This document shows, piece after piece, positions 1-42,184 of a DNA stretch of 64,000 bases. Source of the stretch: an uncultured Rhodobacteraceae bacterium (GTDB lineage Bacteria; Pseudomonadota; Alphaproteobacteria; Rhodobacterales; Rhodobacteraceae); the NCBI GenBank assembly GCA_937907485.1, contig CALESR010000270.1, positions 3,200 to 67,199 of the forward strand, written 5' to 3'. The number at the start of each line of letters is the position of its first letter. The first letter of the stretch is position 1. A model generated the notes under the pieces. The model saw nothing but the letters and a program-made list of their open reading frames with translations. It searched no databases and was not told the origin of the DNA. Both the position numbers and the translations under genes were made by a program.

Positions 1-2
1 CG

Positions 3-743
3 ATCCCCGGCTTTGCCATTCTGGCGGGCTATGAGGCGGTGCGCGTGCTGCGGCCGCTGTTCGTCACGCCCGAGAGGGTTCTGGCCTGCGAGTTCCAGCG
101 CCTTGATGCTGCGCTCTTTGGCTTTGGCAGCGGCCTGACCCCGGCGGATTTCTTTGCCCGCCATCACGGGCTGGTGGCGGATCTGGTCTTTGGCCTGCCC
201 TATACCGTGTTCTGGGCGATGGTGCTGCTGTGGTGCGTGCTGTTGTTCCTGATCTCGCGCGGGCGGTTTCGGCGCTATCTGTGGGTGCTGGCGCTGACGC
301 ATCTGGCGGCCTTTGTCGTCTGGATGCTGCTGCCCGCTGCGCCGCCGTGGTATGTGCGCGCGCATGCCTGCGTCATCGACCTGAGCGTCGCGCCGCAGGC
401 CGCTGCCCTCAGCCGCCTCGATGCGCTGTTCGGCATCCGCTATTTCGAGGCCTTCTATAGCCGCGCGCCCACGGTCTTTGGCGCCTTTCCCTCGCTGCAT
501 GTGGCCTTTCCGGCGGTGGCGATGGTGACGGGCTGGCGCTGGTTCGGTCCGGCGGGGCGGGCCGTCACCGCCGCACTGACCCTGTGGATGATCGCGGCGA
601 GCGTGTATCTCGATCACCATTGGCTGATCGACGGGCTGGCGACGCTGGGGCTGGTGCTGGCGCTGCACGCTGTGCTGGTGCGGCTTTGGCCGGCCTATGC
701 GGCGCCCGATCCGGGCGCGCGCTGGCGCGAGGGGCCGCGATGA
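3..743 (+). CDS. Aur1-like inositol phosphorylceramide synthase / PAP2-superfamily phosphotransferase (5'-truncated by window edge)
   Basis: Frame is open from base 3. Membrane protein with PAAPPWY, VFGAFPSLH and YLDHHWLID, which parallel the fungal Aur1 conserved blocks (PAxxPWY, FGAFPSLH, HHYFVD) including both catalytic His and the Asp. Confidence 0.78.
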   Translation: MPGFAILAGYEAVRVLRPLFVTPERVLACEFQRLDAALFGFGSGLTPADFFARHHGLVADLVFGLPYTVFWAMVLLWCVLLFLISRGRFRRYLWVLALTHLAAFVVWMLLPAAPPWYVRAHACVIDLSVAPQAAALSRLDALFGIRYFEAFYSRAPTVFGAFPSLHVAFPAVAMVTGWRWFGPAGRAVTAALTLWMIAASVYLDHHWLIDGLATLGLVLALHAVLVRLWPAYAAPDPGARWREGPR

Positions 744-1891
744 CCCTGGAAATTCTGCCCGTGCTGGACCGCCGGTTGCTGGCGCAGTTCATCGACCTGC
801 CGCCCGCCCTGTATCAGGGTCTTGCGGGCTTTGTGGCGCCGCTGCGGATGGAGCGGGCGATGATGCTGGACCCGCGCAAGGCGCCGTTCTTTCGGCGCGG
901 GACGGTGCGGTATTGGCTGGCCCGGCGCGACGGGGTGACCGTGGGGCGGATTTCGGCGCAAATCGCCGCGGATCGGCCGGTCGGCGTGCCCGAGGCGACG
1001 GGCATGTTCGGCTGTCTCGATGCGATTGATGATCGCGCGGTGATCGCTGGGCTGATCGCCAAGGCCGAGGGCTGGCTGGCGAGACAGGGTTGCCGCCACG
1101 CCTTTGGGCCCTTCATGCTGAACATGAACGGCGAGCCGGGACTGCTGATCGACGGTTTTGAACAGCCGCCGATGACCCAGACGCCTTGGCACCCGCCCTA
1201 TCTGCGCGGCCATCTCGAGGCTCTGGGCTATGCCAAGTGGAAGGATCTGAATTCGTGGCGGCTCGATCTGCGCGGGGTCGAGGCCGCCACATTGCGCCAG
1301 TCCCTGCGCCTGCCGCGGCGGCGCGGCGAGGTGACCGCGCGGCCGATCACCCGGCGGTCGTTGCGGGCCGACCTGCCGATCCTGCGCGACCTTTACAACG
1401 ACGGCTGGCGCGACAACTGGGGGCATGTGCCGCTGAGCCTCAATGACCTGCAGGGCCTGCGCCTGCTGGCGCCCTTCCTGCCGCGCGAAACCGGCCGGGT
1501 GATCGAAATTGACGGCGCACCCGTGGCGATCTTGCTGGGCATTCCGGACATTTTCGAACTGTCGCGCGGGTTGGGGCCGCGGCCCTCGCCGTTGGGTTGG
1601 CTGCGGCTGGCCTGGCGCTCGCTGCGCTTTCGGCCGCGCAGCGGGCGCATCATCGTGATGGGGATCGCCGCGAACCTTCGCTACAGCGCTGCCGGGGCGG
1701 CGATCCTGTTGACACTGCTCGACGAGATGATCGACCAGCAGCAAGCCCTCGGCCTCGAGGCAATCGAAGGGGGCTGGGTATTGGAAGATAACGTCGCATT
1801 GACACGGCTGCTGGTTCGTTACAACTTTGCCGCCACACGGACTTTTCGCATCTTCGGCAAGACCTTCTCCGACGATGCCAGCCAGGGATAA
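740..1891 (+). CDS. bcerS: GNAT-fold acyltransferase of the YghO/bacterial ceramide synthase (bCerS) family
   Basis: ATG at 740 overlaps the upstream stop (ATGA). Motifs GRISAQI, GMFGCLDAIDD, AEGWL, GPFMLNMNGEPGLLIDGF, PWHPPY, GYAKWKDL, YNDGWRDNWGHVP and GWVLEDN match my recollection of this family. It lies near an SPT-like gene. Confidence 0.68.
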   Translation: MTLEILPVLDRRLLAQFIDLPPALYQGLAGFVAPLRMERAMMLDPRKAPFFRRGTVRYWLARRDGVTVGRISAQIAADRPVGVPEATGMFGCLDAIDDRAVIAGLIAKAEGWLARQGCRHAFGPFMLNMNGEPGLLIDGFEQPPMTQTPWHPPYLRGHLEALGYAKWKDLNSWRLDLRGVEAATLRQSLRLPRRRGEVTARPITRRSLRADLPILRDLYNDGWRDNWGHVPLSLNDLQGLRLLAPFLPRETGRVIEIDGAPVAILLGIPDIFELSRGLGPRPSPLGWLRLAWRSLRFRPRSGRIIVMGIAANLRYSAAGAAILLTLLDEMIDQQQALGLEAIEGGWVLEDNVALTRLLVRYNFAATRTFRIFGKTFSDDASQG

Positions 1892-1898
1892 CAGCTCG

Positions 1899-2240
1899 AT
1901 GACCGACAGCGACGTCAACATGGCCCCACCCGCCGAGCCCGAACGCGGCCCGGCGCCAACCGAGTGGCCGGTCCTGCCCGAAGAGGGGATGCTGGACAAG
2001 ATCCTGAAGATCGTGGTCGACGAGGGCAAGGTCGAGGCCGACGCCGTGCAACCCGTGGCCACCTTGGAATCGCTGGGCCTGATCTCGATCGACGTCATCA
2101 GCATCCTGATGGGAATCGAGGAGGAATTCGACGTCTATCTGCCGATGAGCGAGGAACTCTCCTCGGCGCGCAATCTGGCCGAGTTGATCGCCGTCATGGT
2201 CGCGCAGATGCGGCCGGACGAACTCAAGTCCATCGGCTGA
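1899..2240 (+). CDS. Dedicated acyl carrier protein (start may be 1899, 1920 or 1989)
   Basis: Small acidic protein with ATLESLGLISIDVISILMGIEEEFDV. The 4'-phosphopantetheine Ser is retained, in an atypical ISI rather than DSL context. Confidence 0.8.
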   Translation: MTDSDVNMAPPAEPERGPAPTEWPVLPEEGMLDKILKIVVDEGKVEADAVQPVATLESLGLISIDVISILMGIEEEFDVYLPMSEELSSARNLAELIAVMVAQMRPDELKSIG

Positions 2241-2248
2241 CCGGGGTC

Positions 2249-3466
2249 ATGGTGCGGGTCGCAATCACCGGATTTGGCGCCGTCAGTGCGGCTGGCATCG
2301 GCGCCGAGGCCCTGTGGCAGGCCGCGCGTGACGGGGTGTCGGGGGTGCGGCCGCTGGACATGCCCCGCAGCGAAACGCTGCGCGTGCGCATTGCGGCCGG
2401 TGTGCCGGAGTTTGATGCGGCGGCGTTGCTGGGCGGGTCGGTTCCCCGCACCAGCGAGCGCTTCAGCCAGTTCGCGATGGTCGCCGCCGCCGAGGCCGTG
2501 GCGCAGTCGGGGATCACCGCCGAGCAACTGGCCGGGCGACGCAGCGCGACGATCATCGGCACCGGGGTCGGCGGTGTCGGTACGATCGACGACAATTGTT
2601 ATCTCTTTTACAGCGAACAGCACTCCGGCGTGCGCGGCGAGGCGATGTCGGTGCCGCGCGTGATGCCCAGCTCTGCCGTGTCGCATGTGTCGATTGCGCA
2701 TGGCATCACCGGGCCCAGTTTCGGCATCGTCAGCGCCTGCGCCTCGGGGGCACAATCCATCGGCGTGGCGATGCAGATGATTCGGTCGGGCATGGTGGAC
2801 CGCGCGCTGGCGGGTGGCACCGAGGCCTGCATCACCCCGGTGACGATGCGCGGTTGGGAGATGCTGCGCGTGCTGTCACCGCGCGCCTGCCAGCCGTTTT
2901 CGGCGGACCGCACCGGCATGGTGCTGGGCGAGGGCGCGGCGGTGTTCTTGCTGGAATCCGAGGAGTCGGCCCACGCACGCGGCGCGACAGTGCTGGCGTG
3001 GCTGGACGGCTATGGCACCAGCAGCGATGCGCGCGACATGATCCAGCCCGATGCCGAGGGCGCGGCCACCGCGATGCGCGAGGCACTGGCGGATGCGGGC
3101 GTCACGCCGGGGCAGATCGGCTATGTCAACGCGCATGGCACCGGCACCGTGCTCAATGACGTGAACGAGGCCGCCGCCCTGCGCGCCGTCTTCGGAGAGG
3201 CGATTCAATCGGTGCCGGTGTCGTCGTCAAAGCCGATTCTGGGCCATACGTTGGGGGCCGCCGGGGCGCTGGAACTGGTCGTCGCGGTGCAGGCCCTTCG
3301 GCATCAGATGGTGCCGCCGCAGGTAAACCTGACCCGGCCCGACCCGAAATGTGCGCTGAACCTGCCAACCGGCGCGGCGCAACCGGCCGACCTCGACGCC
3401 GTGCTGTCGAATTCCTTTGCCTTTGGCGGCATCAACGCCGTGTTGCTGGTGCGCCGCGCGCCATGA
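2249..3466 (+). CDS. Beta-ketoacyl-ACP synthase II family (FabF/NodE-like)
   Basis: Catalytic Cys-His-His triad in SACASG, NAHGTGT and GHTLGAAG; C-terminal SNSFAFGGINA. The segment WEMLRVLSPRACQPFSADRTGMVLGEG resembles NodE-type enzymes. Confidence 0.92.
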   Translation: MVRVAITGFGAVSAAGIGAEALWQAARDGVSGVRPLDMPRSETLRVRIAAGVPEFDAAALLGGSVPRTSERFSQFAMVAAAEAVAQSGITAEQLAGRRSATIIGTGVGGVGTIDDNCYLFYSEQHSGVRGEAMSVPRVMPSSAVSHVSIAHGITGPSFGIVSACASGAQSIGVAMQMIRSGMVDRALAGGTEACITPVTMRGWEMLRVLSPRACQPFSADRTGMVLGEGAAVFLLESEESAHARGATVLAWLDGYGTSSDARDMIQPDAEGAATAMREALADAGVTPGQIGYVNAHGTGTVLNDVNEAAALRAVFGEAIQSVPVSSSKPILGHTLGAAGALELVVAVQALRHQMVPPQVNLTRPDPKCALNLPTGAAQPADLDAVLSNSFAFGGINAVLLVRRAP

Positions 3467-3864
3467 GCGCCGCGCCGCGCGCCCTTGGCACCTATGAGGT
3501 CACCGTCGAGGCCGCAGCCGCAGCCGCCCTCGCCGCCGCCTTGGGGCGGAGGGGCCCCGAGGGCCCCGTGCCGCTGACCTATCCGCTGATCTGGCTGGCG
3601 GCGCCTGCCGTCCGTCTGGCCTTGCAGGCCGAACTGGCGGGTGAGGGGGCCCTGGCCCTGCCGGTCCACATTGAACAGCGCATTGCGCTGAGCGCGCCCT
3701 TGGTGATCGGTGCGGCCTATCGGCTGGTTCTGACCCTCGACGGTCCCGATGCGCGGCGCATTCTGCGGCTCGACGGCACGCTGCACGACAGCGCCGGGCA
3801 AGAGGTGGGCACCCTGCGCACCGGCCTTGCACTGGTGGCACTGCCGCAGGGCGCAGGCGCATGA
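3463..3864 (+). CDS. Hot-dog-fold protein, probable non-catalytic partner of the downstream MaoC dehydratase
   Basis: ATGA-coupled to the KS. P(L)TYP and PVHIEQRIALSAPLVIG pattern is typical of MaoC N-terminal/HadA-like subunits; no DxNPxH motif. Confidence 0.55.
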   Translation: MSAAPRALGTYEVTVEAAAAAALAAALGRRGPEGPVPLTYPLIWLAAPAVRLALQAELAGEGALALPVHIEQRIALSAPLVIGAAYRLVLTLDGPDARRILRLDGTLHDSAGQEVGTLRTGLALVALPQGAGA

Positions 3865-4259
3865 GCGGCGCGCTGCCTGTCGGTACGCGCCTGCCGGGTG
3901 TCGATCTGCCGCTGGCCGATGCCGAGGCGGTGCAGGCCTATCTGGCGGTGTCTGGCGATGACAACCCGCTGCACCGCGACCCCTCGATGGCGCGCGCGGC
4001 GGGCTTTGACGATAGTCTGGTGCCGGGGATGCTGGTGATGGGCCAGATGGCCGAGGTGCTGCACAATTGGCCCGCCTGCGCCGCGATCGACTGGATGCTG
4101 TGCCGCTTTGTCGATCCGGTGATCGTTGGCACTGCGCTGCGCTGCGAGGGGCGGGTTGTGGCGCAGGATCCTTCGGGAGGCGTGATCCTGCGGCTGACGG
4201 CAGGGGTCGGGCGGCGCCCTGCTGTGGTGGCCGAGGCGCTCATCCGCCCGTCGCCCTGA
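3861..4259 (+). CDS. MaoC-family (R)-hydroxyacyl dehydratase
   Basis: Hydratase motif SGDDNPLHRDPSMARAAGFDDSLVPGML and RFVDPV; ATGA-coupled to the upstream ORF. Confidence 0.82.
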   Translation: MSGALPVGTRLPGVDLPLADAEAVQAYLAVSGDDNPLHRDPSMARAAGFDDSLVPGMLVMGQMAEVLHNWPACAAIDWMLCRFVDPVIVGTALRCEGRVVAQDPSGGVILRLTAGVGRRPAVVAEALIRPSP

Positions 4260-5367
4260 GGCGTCGGCGCATCCGCCAGCCGCCGATCCCCAGCGCCAGC
4301 GCGCAGCCCCCCAACACTGCGACGGGCAGGCCCCAGGCGGCCCAGACCGGCGCGATGCGCCCGTATTCCCCCAGCGCGGAAAAGACGTTGCCGCCCAGAT
4401 TCAGCGCATAGGCCGCGCCGAGGATGACCAGCGGCGTCATCAGCCCGCGCCGCGCCGCCAGCCAGCGCAGGCTGAGGCTGGCGACCAGCAGCGCCATCGC
4501 CACCATGGCGGCCAAGGCCGCATGGCGCTCGTTCAGTGCGGCGCGATAGGCGTCGGCGGCCGGAACGCCGCCCGCGGCGTGCGCAATGCGCGTCAGTGCG
4601 TCCTGCGGCACCAGGCGGGGCTCGACCCCGGCATGGGCCAGCCAGTCGGTGTTGATGGCCAAGGGCACGCGGGCGTCGCTCGGGCCCCCGGCTGGCCAAG
4701 TGGCATGGGCGCCCGTCAACAGAACGGCGCCGTCAACCGGGCGCGCCTCGTCAGCCCAGATCACCCGCTCCAGCCGGTTTTCGCCGTCCAGAAGGAACAG
4801 CCGCAGATCGACCAGCACCGGCCCTGTGGCCTCGAACCGCAGACCGGCATGGACCAGCGCCGCCCCGAAATCATGCCATTCGGGCGGCGCGCTGCCGCCT
4901 GCGAAGCCTGCGCCGTAATAGCGAAACCCGGCCTCGCCCTGCGCCTTGACGGCATGGGGGCGCACATGGGCCAGCAGCGCGACTTGCGCCAGACCAAAGG
5001 CCACCCCGACCACCAGCGCGGGCATCAGCGACAACAGGGGCGCCCGCCCGGTGTTGGCGATCATCGCGCGCTCGTGCCCGCGTGTCAGGTCGAATTCCAC
5101 CCAAAGGATGCCGATCCCCATGCCGATCGGCAGGATTGCAGGCAAGTTGTAGAGCGCACGCAGCCACAGATACCAGGCCAGACGGGGGGCGCCCTCGGGC
5201 ATCGCGGCCACGCCCTGGGCCGTCAGCACCCGGTCGTAATGCCCGGCCAGATCCAGCGCCAACACCAGCGCCAACGCCAGCGCCACCACCAGCGCGGTGC
5301 GCAGTGCATAAAGCCGGGCGACATAGCGGGTTTCCAGCCCGAAGACGGCGAGCGGCGGGCGGGTCAC
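4240..5367 (-). CDS. LptF/LptG-family permease (LptG-like paralog)
   Basis: GTG at 5367 overlaps the stop of the upstream permease. RYV..Y N-terminus, three N-terminal TMs, LPAILPIG...E..M...G motif, periplasmic beta region, three C-terminal TMs with P..AAW.P. Confidence 0.7.
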   Translation of the reverse strand: MTRPPLAVFGLETRYVARLYALRTALVVALALALVLALDLAGHYDRVLTAQGVAAMPEGAPRLAWYLWLRALYNLPAILPIGMGIGILWVEFDLTRGHERAMIANTGRAPLLSLMPALVVGVAFGLAQVALLAHVRPHAVKAQGEAGFRYYGAGFAGGSAPPEWHDFGAALVHAGLRFEATGPVLVDLRLFLLDGENRLERVIWADEARPVDGAVLLTGAHATWPAGGPSDARVPLAINTDWLAHAGVEPRLVPQDALTRIAHAAGGVPAADAYRAALNERHAALAAMVAMALLVASLSLRWLAARRGLMTPLVILGAAYALNLGGNVFSALGEYGRIAPVWAAWGLPVAVLGGCALALGIGGWRMRRRLRATGG

Positions 5368-6524
5368 AATCGTATCCCCTGAGGCAGAACCGATCCCGGC
5401 AAAAGCCGGGCCATCAGCCACGACACCAGCGCGACCAGTGCCAGCGCCAACCCGGCCACCGAGGCCAGGGCCGCCCCAGGCGGCAGACCGCCCAGCAGCG
5501 CCGCGCCCGGCGACAGTGCCAGCCCACCGCCGAGCACCGCACCCAAGGCCACCGGCAGCGCCGCCAACCGCAGCGGTCCGCGAGTCGCCGCCAGCGCCAG
5601 CCCGGCGATCAGCGGCGCGGTCAGTGCCAGCGCCATGCCCAGCACCCGTTCCAGCGCGACCTGTCCGGCGCGCGCATTTCCGCCGAACCAGTCCTGCACC
5701 ACCTCGGGCAGGGTCGCCGTGCGCAGGGTTTCCCCCGGGCCCGGTGCGCCCGGCAGGTCGATGCGCACCGGACCCAGACGCATGCGCTCGACAGCGATCT
5801 GCAGCCCGGCGGTGCGCGTCTGCCCCTCGGTGCGGGAGAACTGGATGATCCGTGCGCCTTCGAGGTCGAGCGCGCCACTCGCCGCGCCGGTGTCGAGGAT
5901 CAGCCGGGTACGCGCGGCGGTGACCACTTGCTCTTCATCGGGATTCGGCCTGAGGAAAACGAAACTGCGTGCCCCGTCGCGGCCCTGCGGCTGCTGGTAA
6001 AAGGTCGTGCTGCCGATGCTCAGGAACCGCCCCTCGATCAGCTGCCCCTGTCGCACGGCCTCGAACTGCGCCTCGATCAGGCGCTGCGTCAGATGCCGGG
6101 CCGCCAGAGGTTCGACAAAACCGCGTAGGCCACCGGCGAGGGTCATCGCGACCAGACCCAGCAGCAGGCAAAAGCCGATCAAGGCGCGCGGTGGCACCCT
6201 GGCCGCGGCGAGAATCACCAGATCACCCGCCTCGCGCCGTCGCAGCAGCGCCAGATAGACCGCGATCACCACCGCCAGTGGCAGGCCGACCGACAGGATC
6301 TCGGGCGAGGCCAGAACCAGCGTCTGAGCAAGGAACCCCAGCCCCAACTGGTTGCGCAGCGTGTCGAACAGCAGATGCGTGACCATCTTGTCGGAAAGGT
6401 AAAGCGCCTCGACCGCCAGAAGCATCAGCGCCATCTGCCCGATGACCTCGCGGCCCAGCACACGCAGATAGCGGCGCGGCAGGCGGGCGGTTCGGGGCGT
6501 GGCGAGCTGGGGGGCGGTTTGCAT
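5364..6524 (-). CDS. LptF/LptG-family permease (LptF-like paralog)
   Basis: RRYLRVLGRE, PEILSVGLPLA..IAVYLALLRRREAGDLVILAAA, FVEPLA and IEGRF follow the YjgP/YjgQ pattern. Confidence 0.75.
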   Translation of the reverse strand: MQTAPQLATPRTARLPRRYLRVLGREVIGQMALMLLAVEALYLSDKMVTHLLFDTLRNQLGLGFLAQTLVLASPEILSVGLPLAVVIAVYLALLRRREAGDLVILAAARVPPRALIGFCLLLGLVAMTLAGGLRGFVEPLAARHLTQRLIEAQFEAVRQGQLIEGRFLSIGSTTFYQQPQGRDGARSFVFLRPNPDEEQVVTAARTRLILDTGAASGALDLEGARIIQFSRTEGQTRTAGLQIAVERMRLGPVRIDLPGAPGPGETLRTATLPEVVQDWFGGNARAGQVALERVLGMALALTAPLIAGLALAATRGPLRLAALPVALGAVLGGGLALSPGAALLGGLPPGAALASVAGLALALVALVSWLMARLLPGSVLPQGIRL

Positions 6525-6531
6525 GGGCGGG

Positions 6532-7272
6532 CTATCGCGCTGGGCCAAGCCAGAGCGCCCGCAGCGCCGGGTCGCCGGCGATCTCGTCAGGGGGCGCGTC
6601 ATGCAGCACGATGCCCTGCGCGATCACGACCACGCGGTCGCAGATCGACAATGTGTCGTGCACATTGTGGTCGGTGACCAGAATGCCGATGCCCCGCGCG
6701 GCCAGATCGCGGATCTGCGCCTTGACCTGTGCAATCGACAGCGGGTCGAGCCCGGAAAACGGCTCGTCCAGCAGCAGATACCGTGGCTGAACGGCAAGGA
6801 GCCGGGCGATTTCGCAGCGCCGCCGTTGCCCGCCCGATACCTGCCGCGGTTTGGCGTCCCGCACCTCGGTCAGGCCCATGTCGCTCAGCAGAGTCTCCAG
6901 TCGCGCCTCGCGGATGGAGCGGTCGGGTTCGTGGTTTTGCAGCGCCAGACGGATATTGTCGGCCAGGCTGAGGCCGCGAAAGGCCGAGGGTTCCTGCGGC
7001 AGATAGCCAAGGCCGCAGCGCGCGCGTGCGTAAGGTGCAAGGCCGGTCAGGTCGCGTCCGTCGAGCAGCACTCGGCCACGGTCGGGCGACTCGGCGCCGG
7101 TCAGCAGGCGGTAGATCGTGGTTTTCCCGGCGCCATTCGGCCCCAGCAGACCGACGATCTGGCCGGGTTGCACGGCAAAGCTGGCATCCGCAACCGCCTG
7201 CACGCCGCGATAGCGCTTTGACAGACCGACCGCAGCTAGCGAGGGCAGGGTGTCAGGGGGGCCGTCGGTCAT
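6532..7272 (-). CDS. LptB-like ABC ATPase
   Basis: Walker A GPNGAGKTT, LGYLPQEPSAFRGL, signature VSGGQRRRCEIAR, Walker B LLLDEPFSGLDP, and the LptB-typical GIGILVTDHNVHDTL. ATG at 7272 is coupled to the upstream stop. Confidence 0.9.
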   Translation of the reverse strand: MTDGPPDTLPSLAAVGLSKRYRGVQAVADASFAVQPGQIVGLLGPNGAGKTTIYRLLTGAESPDRGRVLLDGRDLTGLAPYARARCGLGYLPQEPSAFRGLSLADNIRLALQNHEPDRSIREARLETLLSDMGLTEVRDAKPRQVSGGQRRRCEIARLLAVQPRYLLLDEPFSGLDPLSIAQVKAQIRDLAARGIGILVTDHNVHDTLSICDRVVVIAQGIVLHDAPPDEIAGDPALRALWLGPAR

Positions 7273-8261: not shown

Positions 8262-8340
8262 GCCGGGGTTACCAACTGGCTGGTGAAGGGGACAGAAGCT
8301 TGATATCTGGAATTGTTAGTCAAATCAGGATGAGAAAGCA

Positions 8341-9423
<1,083 letters not shown>

Positions 9424-9444
9424 GGGCGGTGGCGACAGGGGCGG

Positions 9445-10677
9445 ATGATGGGCGAGGGCGCGGCAACCGGACGGTCGTTCAACGAGGTGATGGGCAAGCG
9501 CATTGCCCGCGCGTTTCAGCGCGTTGCCGAGGGGATGAGCGCCGACGAGTTCAACCGCTCTGGCGCGCGGGAGGCCTTTTTTGCCCCGATCGACGCATTG
9601 GAGTCCGCGACCACGGCGCAAGGTGGGCAGTTTCTCAGCTTTGGCCATTACGACTATCTCGGGTTGACGCGGCACCCTGCGGTGATCGAGGCGGGGGTGG
9701 CGGCGCTGCGCCAGCATGGCAGCGGTGCGGGCGCCTCGCGGCTGGTCGGCGGCGAAAGGCTGGCCCACCGCGCGCTTGAAACCGCGATGGCGCGGTTCCT
9801 CGGGGTGGATGCGACGCTGGCGGTCATCAGTGGGTATCTGACCAACCTGTCGCTGATCCCGCATCTGCTGACCGCAAAGGATCTGCTGATCCTCGACGAT
9901 CTGGCGCACAACTCGATCGCCAGCACGGCCCGCATTGGCGGTTATGCCTGCCGGACCTTTGCTCACAACGATTGCGACGCGCTCGAACGTATCCTGACCA
10001 CGGAACGTGCCCGCTATCGCCATGTGCTGATTGTCACCGAGGGGCTGTTCTCGATGGATGGCGACATCCCGGACCTGCCGCGGATTCTGGCGCTCAAGGA
10101 GGCCCACAACGCCTGGCTGATGCTGGACGAGGCGCATTCCTATGGCGTGCTGGGGGCGACAGGGCGCGGCATCACCGAACATTTCGGCGTCGATCCGCGA
10201 CGAGTCGATATCTCGGTCGGCACGTTGTCCAAGAGTTTCGGCGCCTCGGGCGGGTTGATCGTCGCCGCCGAGCACGTCATCGAATGGCTGCGTTATACAC
10301 TGCCGGGCTTTGTGTTCAGCGTCGGCCTGTCGCCGGTTGCCGTGGCGACGGTGCATGCGGCGCTGGATCTGCTGATCGCCGAGCCCGAGCGACTGGCCCG
10401 CATGAACGAGGCGTCGCGGTATTTCCTGGCGCAGGCGCGGGCGGCGGGGCTGAACACTGGCCCGGCGATCGGAACGGCGGTGGTGCCGGTGATCTTTGCC
10501 GATACCCAGCAAACCATGCTGGCGGCCCGGCGGCTGCGCGAGGCGGGCATTTATGCCCCGCCGGTGGCGACGGTCGGCGTGCCCTCGGACAGTCCGCGCA
10601 TTCGGTTTTTCCTGACGGCGAATCACACAACCGCCGATATCGACCGCGCGATAGCCGTGCTGGTCGGGTCAGCCTGA
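9445..10677 (+). CDS. PLP-dependent alpha-oxoamine synthase, serine-palmitoyltransferase-like (RkpG/WcbT-type)
   Basis: YDYLGL, SGYLTN, DLAHNSI, EGLFSMDGD, DEAHSYG, and PLP-lysine motif GTLSKS. The family is certain; serine/acyl substrate is inferred from context. Confidence 0.85.
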   Translation: MMGEGAATGRSFNEVMGKRIARAFQRVAEGMSADEFNRSGAREAFFAPIDALESATTAQGGQFLSFGHYDYLGLTRHPAVIEAGVAALRQHGSGAGASRLVGGERLAHRALETAMARFLGVDATLAVISGYLTNLSLIPHLLTAKDLLILDDLAHNSIASTARIGGYACRTFAHNDCDALERILTTERARYRHVLIVTEGLFSMDGDIPDLPRILALKEAHNAWLMLDEAHSYGVLGATGRGITEHFGVDPRRVDISVGTLSKSFGASGGLIVAAEHVIEWLRYTLPGFVFSVGLSPVAVATVHAALDLLIAEPERLARMNEASRYFLAQARAAGLNTGPAIGTAVVPVIFADTQQTMLAARRLREAGIYAPPVATVGVPSDSPRIRFFLTANHTTADIDRAIAVLVGSA

Positions 10678-11484
10678 CGGGCCTTCGCCCTCGCCCGGAT
10701 CGGGGGCACTGCCGGTGTGTTTCAGACTGTAGGTCAGGATGCGGTCGACCAGCGCGTCTGGCGCCAAGGCCCCCAGCGCCACCGCCAGCCGCAGGGGCCA
10801 GGGAAAGGCGCTGATTCGCGCGCCGCGCGCGACGTCGTGGGCGATGCGCTGCGCCGCGCGCTCGGCGCTCCACAGCCAGGGGCGCGGGGTGGTCAGCGAC
10901 TGGCTCATCGGGGTATCGACAAAGCCCGGCAGCACCAGCGTCACCGCAACACCCTGCGGGCGCAGCAACCGGCGCGTCCCCTCGGCATAGATCCTGAGGG
11001 CGGCCTTGGACGCGGAATAGACCGGCGCCTGCGGCAACCCGATGCCCCCCTGAACCGAGCCGATGATGACCACATGCCCGGCGCCGCGTTGCGCCATGCG
11101 GGGCTGCAAGGGAGTCAACGTGTTCAGCACGCCCATCATGTTCACCGCCATCAGGTCGCGGGCCTGCGCGCCCCGCTCGCCGCCCGGTGGCGCCAGTGCG
11201 CGCCCGCCGCCCAGGCCCGCCCCGGCGATCACCAGATCGACCGCTTGCCGCTGGTCGCACCCCTCGATCCAGGGTTCCAGGCGGTCGTGGTCGGTGACGT
11301 CGATGCGGGCGGCCTCGACCGTGGCGCCGCGCTGGCGGCAGGCCTCGGCAGTGGCGGCCAGCCGCTCGGCGTCGCGGCCATTGAGCGACAGCGCACGACC
11401 CGGCGCGGCGTAATGCAGCGCCAGCGCACGGCCGATGCCGCTGCTCGCGCCGGTAATCAGCACATGCTGGGGTTTGGTCCGCAT
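10669..11484 (-). CDS. Classical short-chain dehydrogenase/reductase (RkpH/WcbP-like; candidate 3-ketosphingoid reductase)
   Basis: ITGASSGIG, catalytic YSASK, PGFVDTPM; AAGGAG Shine-Dalgarno upstream of ATG 11484. Confidence 0.85.
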   Translation of the reverse strand: MRTKPQHVLITGASSGIGRALALHYAAPGRALSLNGRDAERLAATAEACRQRGATVEAARIDVTDHDRLEPWIEGCDQRQAVDLVIAGAGLGGGRALAPPGGERGAQARDLMAVNMMGVLNTLTPLQPRMAQRGAGHVVIIGSVQGGIGLPQAPVYSASKAALRIYAEGTRRLLRPQGVAVTLVLPGFVDTPMSQSLTTPRPWLWSAERAAQRIAHDVARGARISAFPWPLRLAVALGALAPDALVDRILTYSLKHTGSAPDPGEGEGPSG

Positions 11485-11604
11485 TGAGGGCTCCTTGCCC
11501 TGTGGTGGTATCACGCGCGCCGGGTTCCTCGCCAGTCGGAACGACGGGATGGCGGCTTTGTCGGCCTGTCGCTATGCTGGCCGCGCCGCCAGAAGGGGTC
11601 TGCC

Positions 11605-12207
11605 TTGCGCATCCATGAACCGTTCGTCGAACCCGTTGCCCGCCGTCTGGTGGGGTCCGGCATCAGCCCCGATGCGCTGACGCTGGCCTCGGTGCCACCG
11701 GCGGTGCTCGCCGGGGTCTGCGCGGCCGTCGGCTGGTTCGAGGCGGCGGCGCTGGCCTTCACACTTAGCGGTGTGCTCGACCTGCTCGATGGGGCGCTGG
11801 CGCGGGCGATGGATCGGCGCAGCCGGTTCGGCGCCTTGCTCGATTCGTCGCTTGACCGGGTCGCGGATGCCTGTGTGCCGATCGGGCTGGTGGTGTTTTA
11901 CAGTGCGCAGGGCGGGCTGGCCGCAATCCCGGCGCTGGCGCTGCTGGCGTCGCTGTGGGTCTCGTATATCCGCGCGCGGGCGCAGTCGCTGGCGCTGGAA
12001 CTGCCCCGGCTGTGGATGCGCCGCGAGGACCGCTTTGTCGCGCTGGTGCTGGCGCTGCTGGCGGCGCGCTGGGTGGCGCCCGAGTCTGACGTGCCCGCGG
12101 TGCTGCTGCTGTGGGTCTGCGCTGCCATCGCGGTTCTGGGGATGATTGCCGGTGGCATGGCGCTGGTGCAGGCGGCACGACTGGCCCGTCAACCGCCCGA
12201 GGCGTGA
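11605..12207 (+). CDS. CDP-alcohol phosphatidyltransferase, probable phosphatidylinositol-phosphate synthase
   Basis: Signature DLLDGALARAMDRRSRFGALLDSSLDRVAD, plus SYIRARAQSL and RREDR as in PIP/AIP synthases. Near ino1. TTG start is uncertain. Confidence 0.88.
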   Translation: MRIHEPFVEPVARRLVGSGISPDALTLASVPPAVLAGVCAAVGWFEAAALAFTLSGVLDLLDGALARAMDRRSRFGALLDSSLDRVADACVPIGLVVFYSAQGGLAAIPALALLASLWVSYIRARAQSLALELPRLWMRREDRFVALVLALLAARWVAPESDVPAVLLLWVCAAIAVLGMIAGGMALVQAARLARQPPEA

Positions 12208-13070
12208 TTGCCCCAGTCCGCCGCAAAGACCGCGATGGCCGTGGCGTCATTCTGGCCCGAGCGGTTTGGCCCGTCGGTCAGCGCCTGAATCGCCGAGGCG
12301 AGGGTCTCGACCGGAAAGCTGCGGGTCGGCACCACCAGCCGCGGCACGCCGCGCCGCGCCAGATGCCCCGAGACCCAGACATCATCGACCCAGCGCACGG
12401 CCTCGGGCATGCCCGAGAAATCGTGCACCGCCGCATCCAGCGCCCTCGGCGGCAGCAGATAGCCCCAGGTGCCAAACAGGATATCGACCGGGACCAGCCG
12501 GGTCTGCGCACTGCACAGAACGTGGTGCAGCGCGGGAAACTCTCGCCCCGGCGTCAGGCACACGCCACGCAGGCCCAGCGCGGCGGTGGGGTTCGCCCGG
12601 TGTGCAGTCAGCAGCGAGGCCAGAAAATCGCGCGGATAGACCACGTCATCATCGACAACCACGAGGCAGGCGTCGGGGTCAGCCGCCAGTGTTGGCAACA
12701 GCTTGGTCACCGGGCCTTCGTCGGTGCAGCGCAGCACCTCGACACCGGGCGGCAGACCCAGCGTCTGTGGGTCAGGATAGGCCGCGCCGTCGCGTCGGCG
12801 GGTCCGGGGCAGGCACAGCACGATGCGGTCGGCGGGCTGGGACTGGTCGATCAGACTGCGCAGGACGCGGTGCAGCCGATGCGCGCGGGCGGGAATCGTG
12901 GTCAGCGTCACCACCAGCCGTTCGGGCCGCGGTGTGGCGGGCACTGGAGCGGGCACCCGCCAGCCCAGCCGCAGCGCCCGCAGATACAGCCCGGCGATCT
13001 GCGCCAGACTGGGCTGGCGATAGCGCGCAAGACTGCGGGCGATGTTTTGCAACAGGGGCACTTTGGTCAT
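12189..13070 (-). CDS. GT-A fold glycosyltransferase (GT2-like)
   Basis: VVTLTTIPAR, LRSLIDQS, DEGPVTKLLP, acidic VVVDDDVVYP, late DDVWVSG. ATG at 13070 is coupled to the upstream stop. Confidence 0.7.
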   Translation of the reverse strand: MTKVPLLQNIARSLARYRQPSLAQIAGLYLRALRLGWRVPAPVPATPRPERLVVTLTTIPARAHRLHRVLRSLIDQSQPADRIVLCLPRTRRRDGAAYPDPQTLGLPPGVEVLRCTDEGPVTKLLPTLAADPDACLVVVDDDVVYPRDFLASLLTAHRANPTAALGLRGVCLTPGREFPALHHVLCSAQTRLVPVDILFGTWGYLLPPRALDAAVHDFSGMPEAVRWVDDVWVSGHLARRGVPRLVVPTRSFPVETLASAIQALTDGPNRSGQNDATAIAVFAADWGNHASGG

Positions 13071-13840
13071 GGCGCCCAGACCTCGGCCGCGGGGCGCCAG
13101 ACCGGCGCGGCAAAGGGATTGACCAGGCGATTGCGCTCGATCCAGCGGCGGGTCAGCGAGGGGCGGGGCAAGCCTGCGTCCTTCCAACTGCCCTGCGTCA
13201 GGTGGCGGGTGACGATGTGGCGGTTCACTGGCCAGATGTCGGGATAGTCCAGCGGCGCCATGAGTTGGATCTGCGCGCCGATCCAGACCTCGGGCCAAGG
13301 GCGTTCTTGCAACAGGCGGGTCAGCATCCGGGGCCCGGTGATGTCCTCGATCCGGTGCCGGGGGGGCTGGGGTTCGGCGGCGAACAGCGCAAAGGCCCGC
13401 TCGATCGCCGCGCGCAGGAGTGGATGGCCGGGCCGGGTTGCCAGAATGCAATTGGCGATCTGCAGCGGCTTGAGATAGCCCAACTCGCGCTGACGCCGGG
13501 CGCCCAGATGCGCCTCGATCGACAGCGAGCATGGGCGCGCGAACAGGTCAGGCGGCAAGGGGCGCAGGGGTTGCATGTCGATATCGGCATAGAGCCCGCC
13601 ATCGCGCCACAGCACGGCCAGCCGGAACACATCGGCGCGCATCACGCCAAAGGGCATCGCGTCAAAGGCGGCGAGGTGCTGGGGCGCGACCTCGGCCAAC
13701 ACCGCGCGGCTGGCGTCGTCGTCGTATAACCGCAGCTCCAGGCCCGGGTTGAGCCGTGCCCAATCCGCACGCAGGGCCTCGGCCTGGGGCGGCAGTCGGG
13801 CCGTTTTCCAGGTTTGCGACAGGATGCGGGGCAGGGGCAT
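13067..13840 (-). CDS. GT32 glycosyltransferase (Och1/Sur1 DXD sugar-binding family)
   Basis: LPRILSQTWKT, RADVFRLAVLWRDGGLYADID, ANCILATRPGHPLL, ITGPRMLT and HLTQGSW are GT32 hallmarks. Confidence 0.87.
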   Translation of the reverse strand: MPLPRILSQTWKTARLPPQAEALRADWARLNPGLELRLYDDDASRAVLAEVAPQHLAAFDAMPFGVMRADVFRLAVLWRDGGLYADIDMQPLRPLPPDLFARPCSLSIEAHLGARRQRELGYLKPLQIANCILATRPGHPLLRAAIERAFALFAAEPQPPRHRIEDITGPRMLTRLLQERPWPEVWIGAQIQLMAPLDYPDIWPVNRHIVTRHLTQGSWKDAGLPRPSLTRRWIERNRLVNPFAAPVWRPAAEVWAP

Positions 13841-13971: not shown

Positions 13972-14691
13972 GTGACCCACCGTCCCATCGCCTATATGAC
14001 CGTCGATGCCGAACCCGATTGCCCGCCCTTCCTGTGGACATGGCGCGGCATCGACGAGGGGCTGCCGCTGCTGCTGGACCTGCTGGCGGACGAAGGTGTG
14101 CCCGCGACCTTTTTCACCACGGGCGGCACCGCCGAGGCCCGGCCCGAGGCCGTCACTGCCATCGTCAAGGGCGGGCACGAACTGGCCTGCCACGGCTATT
14201 CGCACAGCAATTTTCGCACGCTTGACCGCGACGCCGCCCGCGACGAGATCACCCGCACCAACGCGATTCTGCGCGCGCATGCCCCGGTAACCTCGTTTCG
14301 CGCGCCGTATCTGTCCTTTCCCGAGGCCTATGTCCCGCTGCTGGCCGAGGCCGGGTTTGCCGTGGACAGCTCGCGCGGGATCTACAAGCGCAACGAGCCG
14401 CGCCATGACGGCGACGGGATGCCCTTTCGGCTGGATGCGTCGGTGACGTCGAGCGTGCTGCGCCTGCCGCGCGTGCTGCGCAGCCCGTATTTTCATGCGC
14501 TGCGCAGTCCGGTCACGCTGTTCGTGCATCCTTGGGAATTCGTCGATTTGTCGCGCACGGGTATCCGGCTGGACTGCCGGTTCCGCACCGGGCAACCCGC
14601 GCTGGACCGGCTGCGCACCACGCTGCGCTGGTTCAAGGCGCGCAATTTCCAGTTTCGGCTGGTGAACGAGGCACCGGCCCTAGCCGCCTGA
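13972..14691 (+). CDS. NodB-type polysaccharide/glycolipid deacetylase
   Basis: MTVDAE, VPATFF, GHELACHGYSH, SFRAPY, FVHPWEF. Confidence 0.85.
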   Translation: MTHRPIAYMTVDAEPDCPPFLWTWRGIDEGLPLLLDLLADEGVPATFFTTGGTAEARPEAVTAIVKGGHELACHGYSHSNFRTLDRDAARDEITRTNAILRAHAPVTSFRAPYLSFPEAYVPLLAEAGFAVDSSRGIYKRNEPRHDGDGMPFRLDASVTSSVLRLPRVLRSPYFHALRSPVTLFVHPWEFVDLSRTGIRLDCRFRTGQPALDRLRTTLRWFKARNFQFRLVNEAPALAA

Positions 14692-15777
14692 GGCCATCTG
14701 CCGATAGAGCGCCAGATGCTGCGCCGCAACTTTGGGCCAGTCAAAACGCCCAAGGGCGGGGCGCGGACCGGTCAGCCGCCGGGCCAGGTCGGAATCCATG
14801 GCCAGCGCCTGCAGCGCCTCGATCATGGCAGCGTCGCTGTCGCACAGAAAGCCGTCCTCGCCGTCGCGGATGAACTCGGCCAGACCGGTGCCCGCGCGGC
14901 CGATCACCGGCAGCCCGGCGGCGCGGGCCTCGAGCGCGGCGATGCCAAAGGATTCGTTGCGCGACGGCAGGACAAAGGCATGGGCGCTGCGATAGAGGGT
15001 GCGCAGATCCTCGCGGCCCAGCCAACCGGGGTTTTGCACGCCGGCGCCCAGCGTGGCGCGGTGACGTCCCTCACCGGCGACCACCATCTCGACGGGCCGG
15101 TCGATGCGCCGTTCCAGAGCCTCGCGCAGCCTTCCCAGCACCTGTGGCCGTTTCTTGCGCTCGAGTCGCATTGCCGAGACCAGCCGAAAAGCTCCCCCGG
15201 CAGGCGGTTGCGCGGGGTCGGCCATCCAGAACCCGGCGTCAAAGCCATTGGGCAGAACCTGTGGCGCGATGGTGGACAGTGGCGCCAGTTGTGCCGCGAT
15301 TCGGGAACTGACCGCTGTCAGTCGCACGTCCGGCCACCGCGGACCCAGCCAGCGCAGCAGGGGTGCCAGCGCCGCCAGATCGGAATGCGCGGTCAGCATC
15401 ACGGGCAGGCCCAGACTGCGCGCGGCGATCAGCCCGGCGAGGCAGGCGGGCGCGACGATGCTGGCATGAACATGCACCACATCGGGCGCGATCGCGGTCA
15501 GCGCTGTCGCCATCCGCCGCACCAGCCGGGGCGACACCGCAAGGTCAAACCCCGGCAACCGCAGCCCGCCCGGTGAAAAAACCGCAACCTCGTCGCTGCG
15601 CGCGCCAGGCTGCGGGGTCAGGACGCTGACCTGCGCCCCCGCAGCGGTCAGCGCCCGGCCGAGGCCGGACAGGTGGCTCTCGATGCCGCCACGGCGCGGG
15701 GCAAACCAGTCGCTGACAAAGGTGATCTTCAGACCTCGGGTCGGGGCAAAGGCCGCTTCGGCAGGCATTGTCGGCAA
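14680..15777 (-). CDS. GT4 glycosyltransferase, PIG-A/PimA-like
   Basis: N-terminal FVSDWFAPRRGGIESHL, DVVHVHAS...TAHS, and GT4 EX7E motif ESFGIAALE. Confidence 0.9.
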   Translation of the reverse strand: MPTMPAEAAFAPTRGLKITFVSDWFAPRRGGIESHLSGLGRALTAAGAQVSVLTPQPGARSDEVAVFSPGGLRLPGFDLAVSPRLVRRMATALTAIAPDVVHVHASIVAPACLAGLIAARSLGLPVMLTAHSDLAALAPLLRWLGPRWPDVRLTAVSSRIAAQLAPLSTIAPQVLPNGFDAGFWMADPAQPPAGGAFRLVSAMRLERKKRPQVLGRLREALERRIDRPVEMVVAGEGRHRATLGAGVQNPGWLGREDLRTLYRSAHAFVLPSRNESFGIAALEARAAGLPVIGRAGTGLAEFIRDGEDGFLCDSDAAMIEALQALAMDSDLARRLTGPRPALGRFDWPKVAAQHLALYRQMASGG

Positions 15778-15861
15778 CTCCGGGCGCGGGCGGCAAAGGG
15801 CGGGAAATCTTTACGCCCTAGGGCGACATGATATCAGCGCAGTGCAGCCCCGTCGCGCGTA

Positions 15862-15890
15862 TTGCACTGTCTGCGTAGGCGGGCAATAGT
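15862..15890 (+). promoter_or_regulatory. Possible sigma70-type promoter for the barrel gene
   Basis: TTGCAC-17 bp-AATAGT; a pattern match only. Confidence 0.22.
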
Positions 15891-16005
15891 CGCGCTGGCA
15901 ACCGTCCATTCGGGAGTGGAACAGATGGCGATGTGTGGCGGCAGGCACCTGGAGCACCGTGGATGCCTGCGCTCAAGATTCGGGCTTCGGGTCTTTGTGT
16001 CGCTG

Positions 16006-16569
16006 ATGATCGCCTTGCTGCTGGCCCAGATGCCCCCCGGCGCCGCGCGCGCGCAGGATCTGTCGTGGCAGGTCTGGGGCGCCGTGATGACCGACAATGA
16101 CGTCCGGCAACTGGTAACCTTTGACAGCATCCGGTTGCTGGAGTCTGGTCTGGTCGGTTTCGCGCTGAACACCCGCTTTGGCCGCCCGTACGACCTGCCC
16201 TTTGGCCAGCTTCGTTTCGAGGCCGAGGCGCAATTGGTTCGCCATTTCGGCCTGCAGGATCATTGGGAGGTCAACCTGCCGGTGGGCCTGCGCTTTGCCC
16301 CGCGCCGCCGGATTTTGGGGTTCGACAGTCTGGCGTTTCTGATAGGGCCGTCGATGGCCTCGCAGATCCCGGCGATCGAACTGCGCCGCGGAGGCGGGGT
16401 GGGGTCACGGGGAATGGTCTATTTCCATGTCGAACTGGAGCGTCAGCTGCGGTCCGACCCCGCCGCGCGGATCTTCCTGCGGTTGCACCACCGCTCGGGT
16501 GGCTATGGGCTGTTTGCCAATGCGGTGGGGACCAACGCATTCGCCATCGGCTATCGCCGGGCGTTCTGA
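16006..16569 (+). CDS. Putative outer-membrane beta-barrel (PagL-like topology); start uncertain (15925-16006)
   Basis: Signal-peptide-like MIALLLAQMPPGAARA|QD, alternating amphipathic strands, RLHHRSG, C-terminal AIGYRRAF ending in Phe (BAM signal). Confidence 0.5.
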   Translation: MIALLLAQMPPGAARAQDLSWQVWGAVMTDNDVRQLVTFDSIRLLESGLVGFALNTRFGRPYDLPFGQLRFEAEAQLVRHFGLQDHWEVNLPVGLRFAPRRRILGFDSLAFLIGPSMASQIPAIELRRGGGVGSRGMVYFHVELERQLRSDPAARIFLRLHHRSGGYGLFANAVGTNAFAIGYRRAF

Positions 16570-42166: not shown

Positions 42167-42184
42167 GTAAGAAGGGCACCAGAC

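Follow-up and report, generated by a model that had tools for sequence, protein, structure and literature searches.

The stretch of DNA analysed here (the window) comprises 64,000 nucleotides from an uncultured Rhodobacteraceae bacterium, positions 3200-67199 of contig CALESR010000270.1 (C270) in a 3.6-Mb assembly of 394 contigs (GCA_937907485.1). At its left end lies a gene island of ~20 kb that, judged in silico from homology and comparative genomics, probably (we put this at about 65%) makes a glycosylated inositol phosphoceramide, a counterpart of the glycosylinositol phosphoceramides (GIPCs) of eukaryotes, and routes it to the outer membrane. Glycosylated inositol sphingolipids are hallmarks of fungi, plants and protists, and the only bacterial inositol ceramides that to our knowledge have been tied to genes are unglycosylated and come from Bacteroidota. 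An earlier reading of the DNA (the sequence-only reading) had proposed that the locus makes and exports such a lipid, and the proposal stood in every computational test run and was strengthened by several, among them the co-occurrence of a bacterial ceramide synthase (bCerS) family, the motifs of an Aur1-like enzyme, the linkage of Ino1 to an alpha-oxoamine synthase (AOS) and the presence of Lpt paralogs.

Gene content and conservation of the island

Reading frames were picked by third-position GC (GC3) because the G+C content of the window is high, and products were identified by Pfam, NCBIfam and PDB sequence searches. The island genes are listed below by window position.

1-743 (+), Aur1-like inositol-phosphotransferase (PAP2_3), 308 aa, whose ATG at C270:3016 precedes the window by 183 nt; PF14378, 6.6e-15
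740-1891 (+), bCerS-family tandem-GNAT N-acyltransferase, 383 aa, candidate ceramide synthase by family co-occurrence and fold
1875-2240 (+), dedicated acyl carrier protein (ACP) with a GLISID serine motif; PF00550, 9.3e-06
2252-3466 (+), FabF-like beta-ketoacyl-ACP synthase II (ketosynthase, KS) with a Cys-His-His triad; PF00109, PF02801
3463-3864 (+), HadA-like, non-catalytic hot-dog subunit; weak NCBIfam HadA match, 2.5e-4
3861-4259 (+), MaoC/HadB-like (3R)-hydroxyacyl dehydratase, catalytic subunit, with a GDDNPLH motif; PF01575, 6.5e-15; HadB, 1.9e-11
4240-5421 (-), LptG paralog (LptG2); PF03739, 61.7 bits; TIGR04408, 67 bits
5364-6602 (-), LptF paralog (LptF2); PF03739, 61 bits; TIGR04407, 64 bits
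6532-7272 (-), LptB paralog (LptB2), predicted ATPase of the island exporter; TIGR04406, 267 bits, cut-off 240
7269-8261 (-), stand-alone MprF-type flippase domain (LPG_synthase_TM/UPF0104/PplT); PF03706, 4.6e-18; TIGR00374, 2.1e-6
8341-9423 (+), myo-inositol-3-phosphate synthase (Ino1/MIPS); PF01658, 2.4e-36; TIGR03450, 478 bits
9445-10677 (+), pyridoxal-phosphate (PLP)-dependent AOS of a new clade, candidate serine palmitoyltransferase (SPT); PF00155, 6e-48
10669-11484 (-), classical SDR with TGxxxGxG and YxxxK motifs, candidate reductase of 3-ketosphinganine (or oxo-ceramide); PF00106, 3e-40
11605-12207 (+), CDP-alcohol phosphotransferase of the (archaetidyl/phosphatidyl)inositol-phosphate-synthase type with a DxxDGxxAR...GxxxDxxxD motif; PF01066
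12189-13070 (-), GT-A (GT2-like) glycosyltransferase with a DDD motif; weak matches to PF13641 and PF00535
13067-13840 (-), GT32 glycosyltransferase with DXD and YADID motifs; PF04488, 9.4e-12
13972-14691 (+), NodB-fold (CE4) de-N-acetylase; PF01522, 3.1e-22
14680-15777 (-), GT4 glycosyltransferase, candidate for transfer of the first sugar onto the inositol lipid; PF00534, PF13439
15925-16569 (+), PagL-like candidate outer-membrane lipid deacylase with a signal peptide and C-terminal Phe; predicted fold

Every gene that the sequence-only reading had named was found at, or a few codons from, where that reading had placed it. These included Ino1, the CDP-alcohol phosphotransferase, the SDR, the Aur1-like enzyme, the bCerS-like GNAT protein, a private ACP/KS/dehydratase module (recovered by Pfam and NCBIfam as the ACP, the FabF-like KS and the hot-dog and MaoC/HadB-like genes), an LptBFG paralog, a deacetylase and a third glycosyltransferase (the GT2-like enzyme). 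Profile and PDB sequence searches upheld the gene list, and the UPF0104 protein at 7269-8261 (-) was a gene missing from that reading's summary. On the same contig, the flank upstream of the window encodes a GT4 of 461 aa and a Wzt ATPase that carries Wzt_C.

The same 19–20 genes are present in the metagenome-assembled genome (MAG) HKST-UBA89 (GCA_020441345.1) of an uncultured Rhodobacteraceae bacterium, with order and orientation kept and 53–85% protein identity, and these genes occur again in the same order, at 53–85% identity, on a JGI metagenome contig. Synteny in both spans the upstream GT4 through the last small ORF, and the gene grouping is a conserved unit rather than a product of chance. 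The conserved part runs left past base 1 to the GT4 and Wzm/Wzt genes, and the right end of the island is at 16569. In HKST-UBA89 the left flank reads dapF, apbA, Wzm, Wzt, Wzt and GT4, followed by the island; in the source assembly the second Wzt (Wzt2) and the GT4 are present upstream, and Wzm and Wzt1 fall in a contig gap (C270:1-163). Contig C371 ends with a dapF ortholog and is thus probably the neighbour of C270.

Evidence from individual genes

The only PDB matches of the PAP2_3 protein were to yeast Aur1, the catalytic subunit of inositol phosphoceramide (IPC) synthase (9vj3 and 9ivc; 1.7e-11). Compared to yeast Aur1, the PAAPPWY and FGAFPSLH blocks are identical and the HHxxxD block is conserved, leaving the catalytic His/His/Asp motifs intact. 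Against NF052609, the model for the Bacteroides phosphatidylinositol (PI)-dihydroceramide synthase, the protein scored 97 bits (1.5e-27) with a cut-off of 480 bits, and it is thus a homolog rather than an equivalog of that enzyme. Nearly all its database relatives are metagenomic; those with names include eukaryotic IPC synthases as well as proteins of a Rhodobiaceae MAG and of the myxobacteria Labilithrix and Chondromyces. Myxobacteria are reported makers of ceramide phosphoinositol (PMC9246714).

Ino1 was unambiguous by profile and, across the order, is tied to the AOS clade. The CDP-alcohol phosphotransferase is nearest to archaetidyl- and phosphatidylinositol-phosphate (PIP) synthases, a match that holds at family level because the scores against NF040950 (113 bits) and NF045883 PIPSynth (98 bits) were both below cut-off. 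No PIP phosphatase was found in the island or its left flank. The sequence-only reading had suggested that this gene might lie left of base 1, which is not the case, as the flank holds the GT4 and Wzt. A single pgpA (PF04608) is present in the genome at C139:10456-10908, and PgpA is the PIP phosphatase family of Bacteroides (PMC9246714).

The 383-aa protein, whose ATGA start overlaps the stop codon of the PAP2_3 gene (740-743), had no match in Pfam or NCBIfam. An AlphaFold (AF2) model built with 30 homologs had a mean confidence (pLDDT) of 90 and a tandem-GNAT fold, with tandem-GNAT N-acyltransferases such as glucosamine N-acetyltransferase and MshD as the nearest solved structures. Co-occurrence was assessed in an evenly drawn sample of 150 other Alphaproteobacteria, 19 of which were Spt-positive, defined as a strong match to the alpha-proteobacterial Spt model. 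Homologs of the 383-aa protein were present in all 19 (31–39% identity, E 1e-52 to 1e-81), and in 15 of these the gene was on the same contig as spt at a distance of 1–18 kb; the 131 other genomes gave one weak match. One genome (G041) carries the array N-acyltransferase, fatty-acid hydroxylase, flippase, LptG, LptF, ..., Spt, an arrangement equal to the published cerS-lptG2-lptF2 order of Caulobacter (PMC11324152). This strict co-occurrence and clustering with spt assigns the 383-aa protein to the bacterial ceramide synthase family, by family rather than by direct alignment, and makes it a candidate ceramide synthase.

The AOS carries the lysine, histidine and aspartate motifs of PLP-dependent AOS enzymes, and its PLP-lysine motif (GTLSKSFGASGG) is closer to those of SPTs than to that of Kbl. 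Its scores of 335 bits against BioF, 287 against Spt-CFB, 284 against Kbl and 204 against Spt-alpha show that no named AOS model reached its cut-off, including the Spt models NF047603 (204 bits, cut-off 670), NF047600 (287 bits, cut-off 640) and NF047599 (273 bits, cut-off 500). The best PDB match was the SPT of Sphingobacterium (205 bits), with Kbl and human SPTLC2 close behind. A relative in HKST-UBA89 was 78% identical, and a scan of genome contigs with the AOS matched only that MAG and one distant sequence. A maximum likelihood tree was built with E. coli BioF and Kbl, the genome's own HemA, six alpha-type Spt proteins, and the Sphingobacterium SPT and human SPTLC2, the last two rebuilt from printed alignments. 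The window AOS and its relatives formed one long-branched clade (100/99). This clade falls with Spt and Kbl but not within the group that unites CFB- and alpha-type Spt (99/98), and it grouped weakly with SPTLC2 (89/85); with few references and several long branches, the tree is no guide to the amino-acid substrate. What had been described as an SPT-like oxoamine synthase is therefore a real PLP-dependent AOS but, by NCBIfam and the tree, not a recognised Spt, and it belongs to a clade of its own. An identity as BioF or Kbl is unlikely, as the neighbours are Ino1, the SDR and LptFG rather than bio or tdh genes and the protein is placed away from E. coli BioF (bioA, bioB and bioD were not searched for). 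Since it is the sole non-HemA member of the AOS family in the genome, there is no other Spt candidate to serve the bCerS-family enzyme. Because the AOS lies outside the Spt clade and below the Spt cut-offs, we infer its use of serine, and hence SPT activity, from genomic context, which makes this the weakest link of the reading. The adjacent SDR has no signal peptide, and an SDR was also found beside Ino1 and the AOS in every one of the related loci described below as type B.

Downstream of the N-acyltransferase, the ACP is 85% identical to its counterpart in HKST-UBA89, and the KS scored 402 bits against TIGR03150 (fabF), below cut-off. The hot-dog gene is ATGA-coupled to the KS and MaoC genes and is also kept in HKST-UBA89. 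Closer homologs of the 383-aa protein (44–50% identity) in Aestuariivirga and Novosphingobium album are likewise followed by ACP and KS genes. The chain-building module therefore belongs to the N-acyltransferase and not to the AOS, as bCerS-family homologs elsewhere also precede ACP and KS genes. By analogy with the AcpXL/LpxXL system of rhizobial lipid A, the module probably supplies a special N-acyl chain. These bCerS-family, ACP and KS genes form a portable cassette beside glycosyltransferases in Aestuariivirga litoralis (locus 10001-13480) and Novosphingobium album (locus 10001-12743); in the Aestuariivirga cassette the KS is followed by two small genes, the second called as a MaoC dehydratase and the first without a Pfam match. 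An aminotransferase near this Aestuariivirga cassette was considered as an Spt and rejected, as it is HemA in the AOS tree.

For export, the island holds a full second LptB/F/G set, with canonical lptF and lptG on contig C39 (203 and 186 bits) and canonical lptB on contig C179 (361 bits). LptF2 and LptG2 clear the Pfam gathering threshold yet fall short of the equivalog cut-offs (64–67 vs 230–240 bits) and are therefore divergent paralogs; LptB2 is above its equivalog cut-off. The UPF0104 flippase-domain gene is in one operon with LptB2F2G2. Members of the UPF0104 family have been proposed to be general prokaryotic phospholipid translocators (bioRxiv 10.1101/2022.03.11.483950), and the LPG_synthase_TM domain is found beside Bacteroides inositol clusters as BT_1521 (PMC9246714) and in amino-glycolipid operons as GpgF/HexF (PMC12713373, PMC10128005). 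In Caulobacter, LptF2 and LptG2 are needed when sphingolipids are made, and the housekeeping LptB is borrowed, there being no second lptB (bioRxiv 10.64898/2026.04.12.717747); the private LptB of the island is thus a real difference from Caulobacter.

Among the glycan genes, the GT2-like glycosyltransferase is 73% identical in HKST-UBA89, and the DXD motifs are intact in this enzyme and in the GT32. The GT32 had been read as Sur1-type, of which the domain with its DXD motif was upheld and the likeness to Sur1 held at family level only. Similarly, the protein at 14680-15777, read as a PIG-A-like GT4, is a GT4 whose resemblance to PIG-A is at family level; its best solved relative was PimA over the full length (2e-12), followed by MshA and BshA. 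All of these relatives glycosylate inositol or a small polyol. Against the model for the GlcNAc-phosphatidylglycerol synthase GpgS, the GT4 scored 65 bits with a cut-off of 480 bits. Its gene and that of the CE4 deacetylase are convergent, overlapping neighbours, and the best NCBIfam match of the deacetylase was the XrtA-system polysaccharide deacetylase (6e-23), with NodB at 7.3e-16. As the GT4, deacetylase and flippase domain follow in kind the synthase-deacetylase-flippase logic demonstrated by experiment for glucosaminyl-phosphatidylglycerol, an N-acetylhexosamine (HexNAc) converted to a hexosamine (HexN) is a reasonable guess for the head group.

The last ORF was modelled by AF2 (pLDDT 88) as an 8-stranded barrel whose top fold match was PagL (2erv; TM-score 0.74 normalised on the target). 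An HHRS motif and a conserved Glu are invariant across 40 relatives, six of which matched PF09411 (PagL) weakly; the island protein itself did not. The outer-membrane barrel of the sequence-only reading stands as a barrel with a signal peptide, and its predicted fold points to a candidate PagL-like lipid deacylase rather than to an export pore.

Distribution and neighbouring genes

Across a sample of 250 Rhodobacterales genomes, the AOS clade was present in 14 and Ino1 in 11. All 11 Ino1-positive genomes also had the AOS clade, and in 10 of them the two genes were within 2.5 kb of each other. No Aur1-like gene was found in these 250 other Rhodobacterales genomes, and three genomes of the same genus as the source were without the AOS, Ino1, the bCerS family and the PAP2 gene. 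Overall, the island is accessory and rare in its full form, so far known from the source assembly and from metagenomic sequences only, and a simpler arrangement (type B) is common in a few marine genera. Four type-B loci, from Stappia sp., Shimia haliotis, Psychromarinibacter sp. and Ca. Rhodobacter oscarellae, share the operon AOS-DUF4833-Ino1-SDR-CTP_transf_1-LptF-LptG, with a GT4 after it in 4/4 loci, NTP_transf_3 in most, and DUF4833 always present. A called CDP-alcohol transferase was found in three of the four, Stappia being the exception, and the operon has no Aur1-like gene, bCerS family or LptB2. The type-B operon may make an inositol lipid via CDP-inositol, with DUF4833 as a candidate substitute for the N-acyltransferase. 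An AOS whose constant neighbours are an inositol synthase, a reductase and a lipid exporter is difficult to interpret except as the first enzyme of an inositol-bearing long-chain-base lipid.

Genes for 2-aminoethylphosphonate synthesis (a PEP mutase fused to a nucleotidyltransferase, a phosphonopyruvate decarboxylase and an aminotransferase) directly precede the type-B operon in Stappia (locus 5468-9366) and Psychromarinibacter (locus 5956-9849), which hints at phosphono-sphingolipid head groups. Three further Rhodobacteraceae genomes (G232, G333 and G294) have a distant member of the AOS clade (47–50% identity), an unlinked bCerS-family gene and no Ino1, and are probably producers of non-inositol sphingolipids.

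The remainder of the window to the right of the island contained the following features.

16658-39000, Wzx/Wzy-type exopolysaccharide locus with genes for a CapD-like protein, Wzc, two UDP-sugar dehydrogenases (Ugd), an epimerase, an AT3-SGNH acyltransferase, methyltransferases, Wzx, EpsG and a GT4
42071-43474, phage-type tyrosine integrase
48714-48803, tRNA-Ser(TGA) gene, ~5 kb from the integrase
51122-55198 (-), hybrid histidine kinase of 1358 aa with multiple PAS domains and a receiver domain

The capsule locus (16.6–39 kb) was considered as part of the island and rejected, as it has no counterpart beside the island in HKST-UBA89, where the right flank instead encodes an acyltransferase, an alcohol dehydrogenase (ADH) and SIR2. 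Because the right flanks of the window and the MAG differ, the capsule genes are neighbours and not members. Their G+C content is 0.64, below the genome value, and the integrase and tRNA-Ser(TGA) gene may together be the boundary of an integrated element through which the exopolysaccharide genes were acquired. For the island, horizontal transfer could not be inferred from composition, as its G+C content (0.688 vs 0.669 for the genome) was within ~1.5 standard deviations.

Proposed pathway, alternatives and related systems

In the proposed pathway, Ino1 would convert glucose-6-phosphate to inositol-3-phosphate, which the PIP-synthase-like enzyme would join to CDP-diacylglycerol, and a phosphatase, probably the unlinked PgpA, would then yield PI. 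The new-clade AOS would condense serine with an acyl thioester, the cytoplasmic SDR would reduce the 3-keto group, and the bCerS-family tandem-GNAT enzyme would N-acylate the resulting base using a donor from the adjacent ACP/KS/HadAB-like module, probably an elongated or a 2-enoyl/3-hydroxy chain. Inositol-phosphate would be moved from PI to ceramide by the Aur1-like PAP2 enzyme. The PimA/MshA-like GT4 would then put HexNAc or a hexose on the inositol, the CE4 deacetylase would expose the amine, and the GT32, the GT2-like enzyme and the upstream GT4 would lengthen the glycan. The inner membrane would be crossed by means of the UPF0104 flippase domain and/or the upstream Wzm/Wzt, after which LptB2F2G2 would extract the lipid to the shared Lpt bridge and the PagL-like barrel could remodel an ester-linked acyl group at the outer membrane.

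Several observations weigh against this pathway. The AOS is outside the known bacterial Spt clade and below every Spt model cut-off, the island encodes no PIP phosphatase, and its reductase is a classical adh_short SDR rather than one of the CerR type (the periplasmic NAD-dependent epimerase family). The identity of the bCerS-family protein comes from co-occurrence and locus context rather than from a direct alignment with Caulobacter CCNA_01212. In addition, type-B loci share the AOS, Ino1 and LptFG but their genomes mostly have no bCerS-family gene, so the AOS product need not always become ceramide. A more far-reaching view, which we offer tentatively and think rather unlikely, is that the island is a second, ceramide-based analogue of lipopolysaccharide (LPS), in which each stage of lipid A/LPS assembly has a counterpart for a eukaryote-type GIPC. 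Glycosyltransferases would build an oligo- or polysaccharide on an inositol-phosphoceramide anchor whose special N-acyl chain would come from the island's own ACP, KS and dehydratase set. Passage across the inner membrane would fall to Wzm/Wzt and/or the UPF0104 flippase, extraction to the fully dedicated LptB2F2G2 motor and editing in the outer membrane to the PagL-like enzyme.

Alternatively, the glycan could be built on a glycerophospholipid (glucosaminyl-PI, or a lipid like the phosphatidylinositol mannosides or a glycosylphosphatidylinositol on diacylglycerol), with the AOS, SDR and bCerS-family enzyme making a separate, simpler ceramide and only the exporter being shared. The PIP-synthase-like enzyme would first make a diacylglycerol lipid, the nearest solved relatives of the GT4, PimA and MshA, act on PI or inositol-phosphate, and a GT4, deacetylase and UPF0104 flippase form a proven glycerophospholipid-modifying module in gpgSDF (PMC12713373). 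However, the overlap at 740-743 couples translation of the bCerS-family gene to that of the Aur1-like gene, the only characterised relatives of the Aur1-like enzyme move inositol-phosphate to ceramide, and in the order sample Ino1 occurs only together with the AOS clade, all of which make this arrangement improbable. Wzm, two Wzt with Wzt_C and a GT4 upstream of the island in the MAG, of which Wzt2 and the GT4 are present in the source assembly, would also suit a product that serves as the lipid anchor of a polysaccharide (lipoglycan or capsule), as proposed for RkpG/RkpH/RkpI or WcbT/WcbP, with the glycosyltransferases polymerising and Wzm/Wzt exporting. The rkp-1 gene set likewise contains an AOS, an SDR and a UPF0104 membrane protein. 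Pairs of a polyketide synthase (PKS) with an AOS of that type make sphinganines (PMC12134224). Nevertheless, conservation of the island does not extend to the Wzx/Wzy capsule locus on its right, and only four or five glycosyltransferases are present with no polymerising enzyme or chain terminator evident, and we consider an anchor role doubtful.

That the AOS does not fall among the known Spt proteins, scores highest in NCBIfam against BioF (335 bits), with Kbl about equal to Spt-CFB, and is weakly linked to SPT in the tree (89/85) would all be expected if it used an amino acid other than serine, in which case the product would be a non-sphingoid amino lipid (for example with a 1-deoxy or glycine-derived base) and the Aur1-like enzyme would act on another hydroxyl acceptor. 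We regard this as very unlikely, as the genome encodes a bCerS-family enzyme and no other Spt candidate, the best PDB match of the AOS is an SPT, and GTLSKSFGASGG is more SPT- than Kbl-like. Furthermore, the IPC synthase reaction transfers inositol-phosphate to a C1 hydroxyl, and an Aur1-type enzyme would need this group, which is supplied only by serine.

A glycosylated inositol phosphoceramide made by the island, if confirmed, would mean that a proteobacterium carries the genes for a GIPC-like lipid as a compact and transferable set, and that a new AOS clade, widespread in marine Rhodobacteraceae and Stappiaceae, is genetically locked to inositol synthesis. It would also provide the first Lpt-type exporter of a non-LPS lipid with its own ATPase, which bears on the route of sphingolipids to the outer membrane, as well as candidate enzymes for building the N-acyl chain for a ceramide synthase and for deacylating sphingolipids in the outer membrane. 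As type-B relatives exist in cultured Shimia, Stappia and Psychromarinibacter, the core prediction is directly testable by lipidomics. In agreement with the novelty claimed by the sequence-only reading, we found no literature on inositol sphingolipids in Rhodobacterales or roseobacters, nor, in the literature searched, a description of these modules combined in one locus, the new AOS clade or its lock to Ino1, a dedicated LptB, a KS/ACP/dehydratase module attached to a ceramide synthase, a PagL-like member or, for any bacterium, a glycosylated inositol phosphoceramide.

The fungal GIPC route proceeds through Aur1/IPC synthase and then the GT32 mannosyltransferases Sur1/Csh1. With the fungal and plant pathway the island shares the Aur1-type motifs, a GT32 in the locus and the same predicted order of reactions; unlike the fungal system, it has no Kei1-like subunit, its ceramide enzymes are of bacterial type, and the first sugar would more likely come from the PimA/MshA-like GT4 and then be de-N-acetylated. 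With BT_1521-BT_1526 of Bacteroides thetaiotaomicron it has in common MIPS, a PIP-type CDP-alcohol transferase, an Aur1-like PAP2 protein and a neighbouring LPG-synthase-TM protein (Heaver et al. 2022, PMC9246714), and in both inositol phosphoceramide would be reached via PI. Unlike in Bacteroides, the PgpA-type PIP phosphatase is outside the island, which adds the AOS, the SDR, the bCerS-family protein, four or five glycan-modifying enzymes, LptBFG and the PagL-like protein, and the island proteins are far below the Bacteroides equivalog cut-offs (97 vs 480 bits; 68 vs 350 bits).

Compared to the Caulobacter crescentus locus (spt, acpR, aasR, cerR, bcerS and lptF2/G2/C2), the island similarly has a bCerS-family N-acyltransferase, a dedicated ACP and LptF/LptG paralogs (PMC11324152; PMC11087976; bioRxiv 10.64898/2026.04.12.717747), with a sphingolipid bound for the outer membrane in both, as predicted for the island. 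It differs in having an AOS of another clade, a cytoplasmic classical SDR rather than the periplasmic CerR, a KS and dehydratase module in place of the acyl-ACP synthetase, its own LptB and no LptC2, and a predicted inositol-phosphate-glycan head group rather than phosphoglycerate. The gpgSDF genes of Pseudomonas aeruginosa and hexSDF of C. difficile resemble the island at the level of domains in combining a lipid glycosyltransferase, a deacetylase and an MprF-type flippase, by which an amino-sugar lipid is displayed on the membrane's outer face (PMC12713373; PMC10128005); in contrast, the island acceptor is presumably an inositol lipid rather than phosphatidylglycerol or diacylglycerol, and the island genes are not contiguous. 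SgaAB of Pseudomonas fluorescens MYb115, a PKS and an AOS that make sphinganines, can be likened by description to the island in having an AOS outside the classical Spt set and a private chain-building system (PMC12134224), whereas the chain-building genes of the island are type II (ACP, KS and dehydratase) and travel with the N-acyltransferase rather than the AOS. Thus, each module of the island has a published counterpart, in the inositol ceramide genes of Bacteroides, the ceramide and LptF2G2 genes of Caulobacter, gpgSDF and fungal Aur1.

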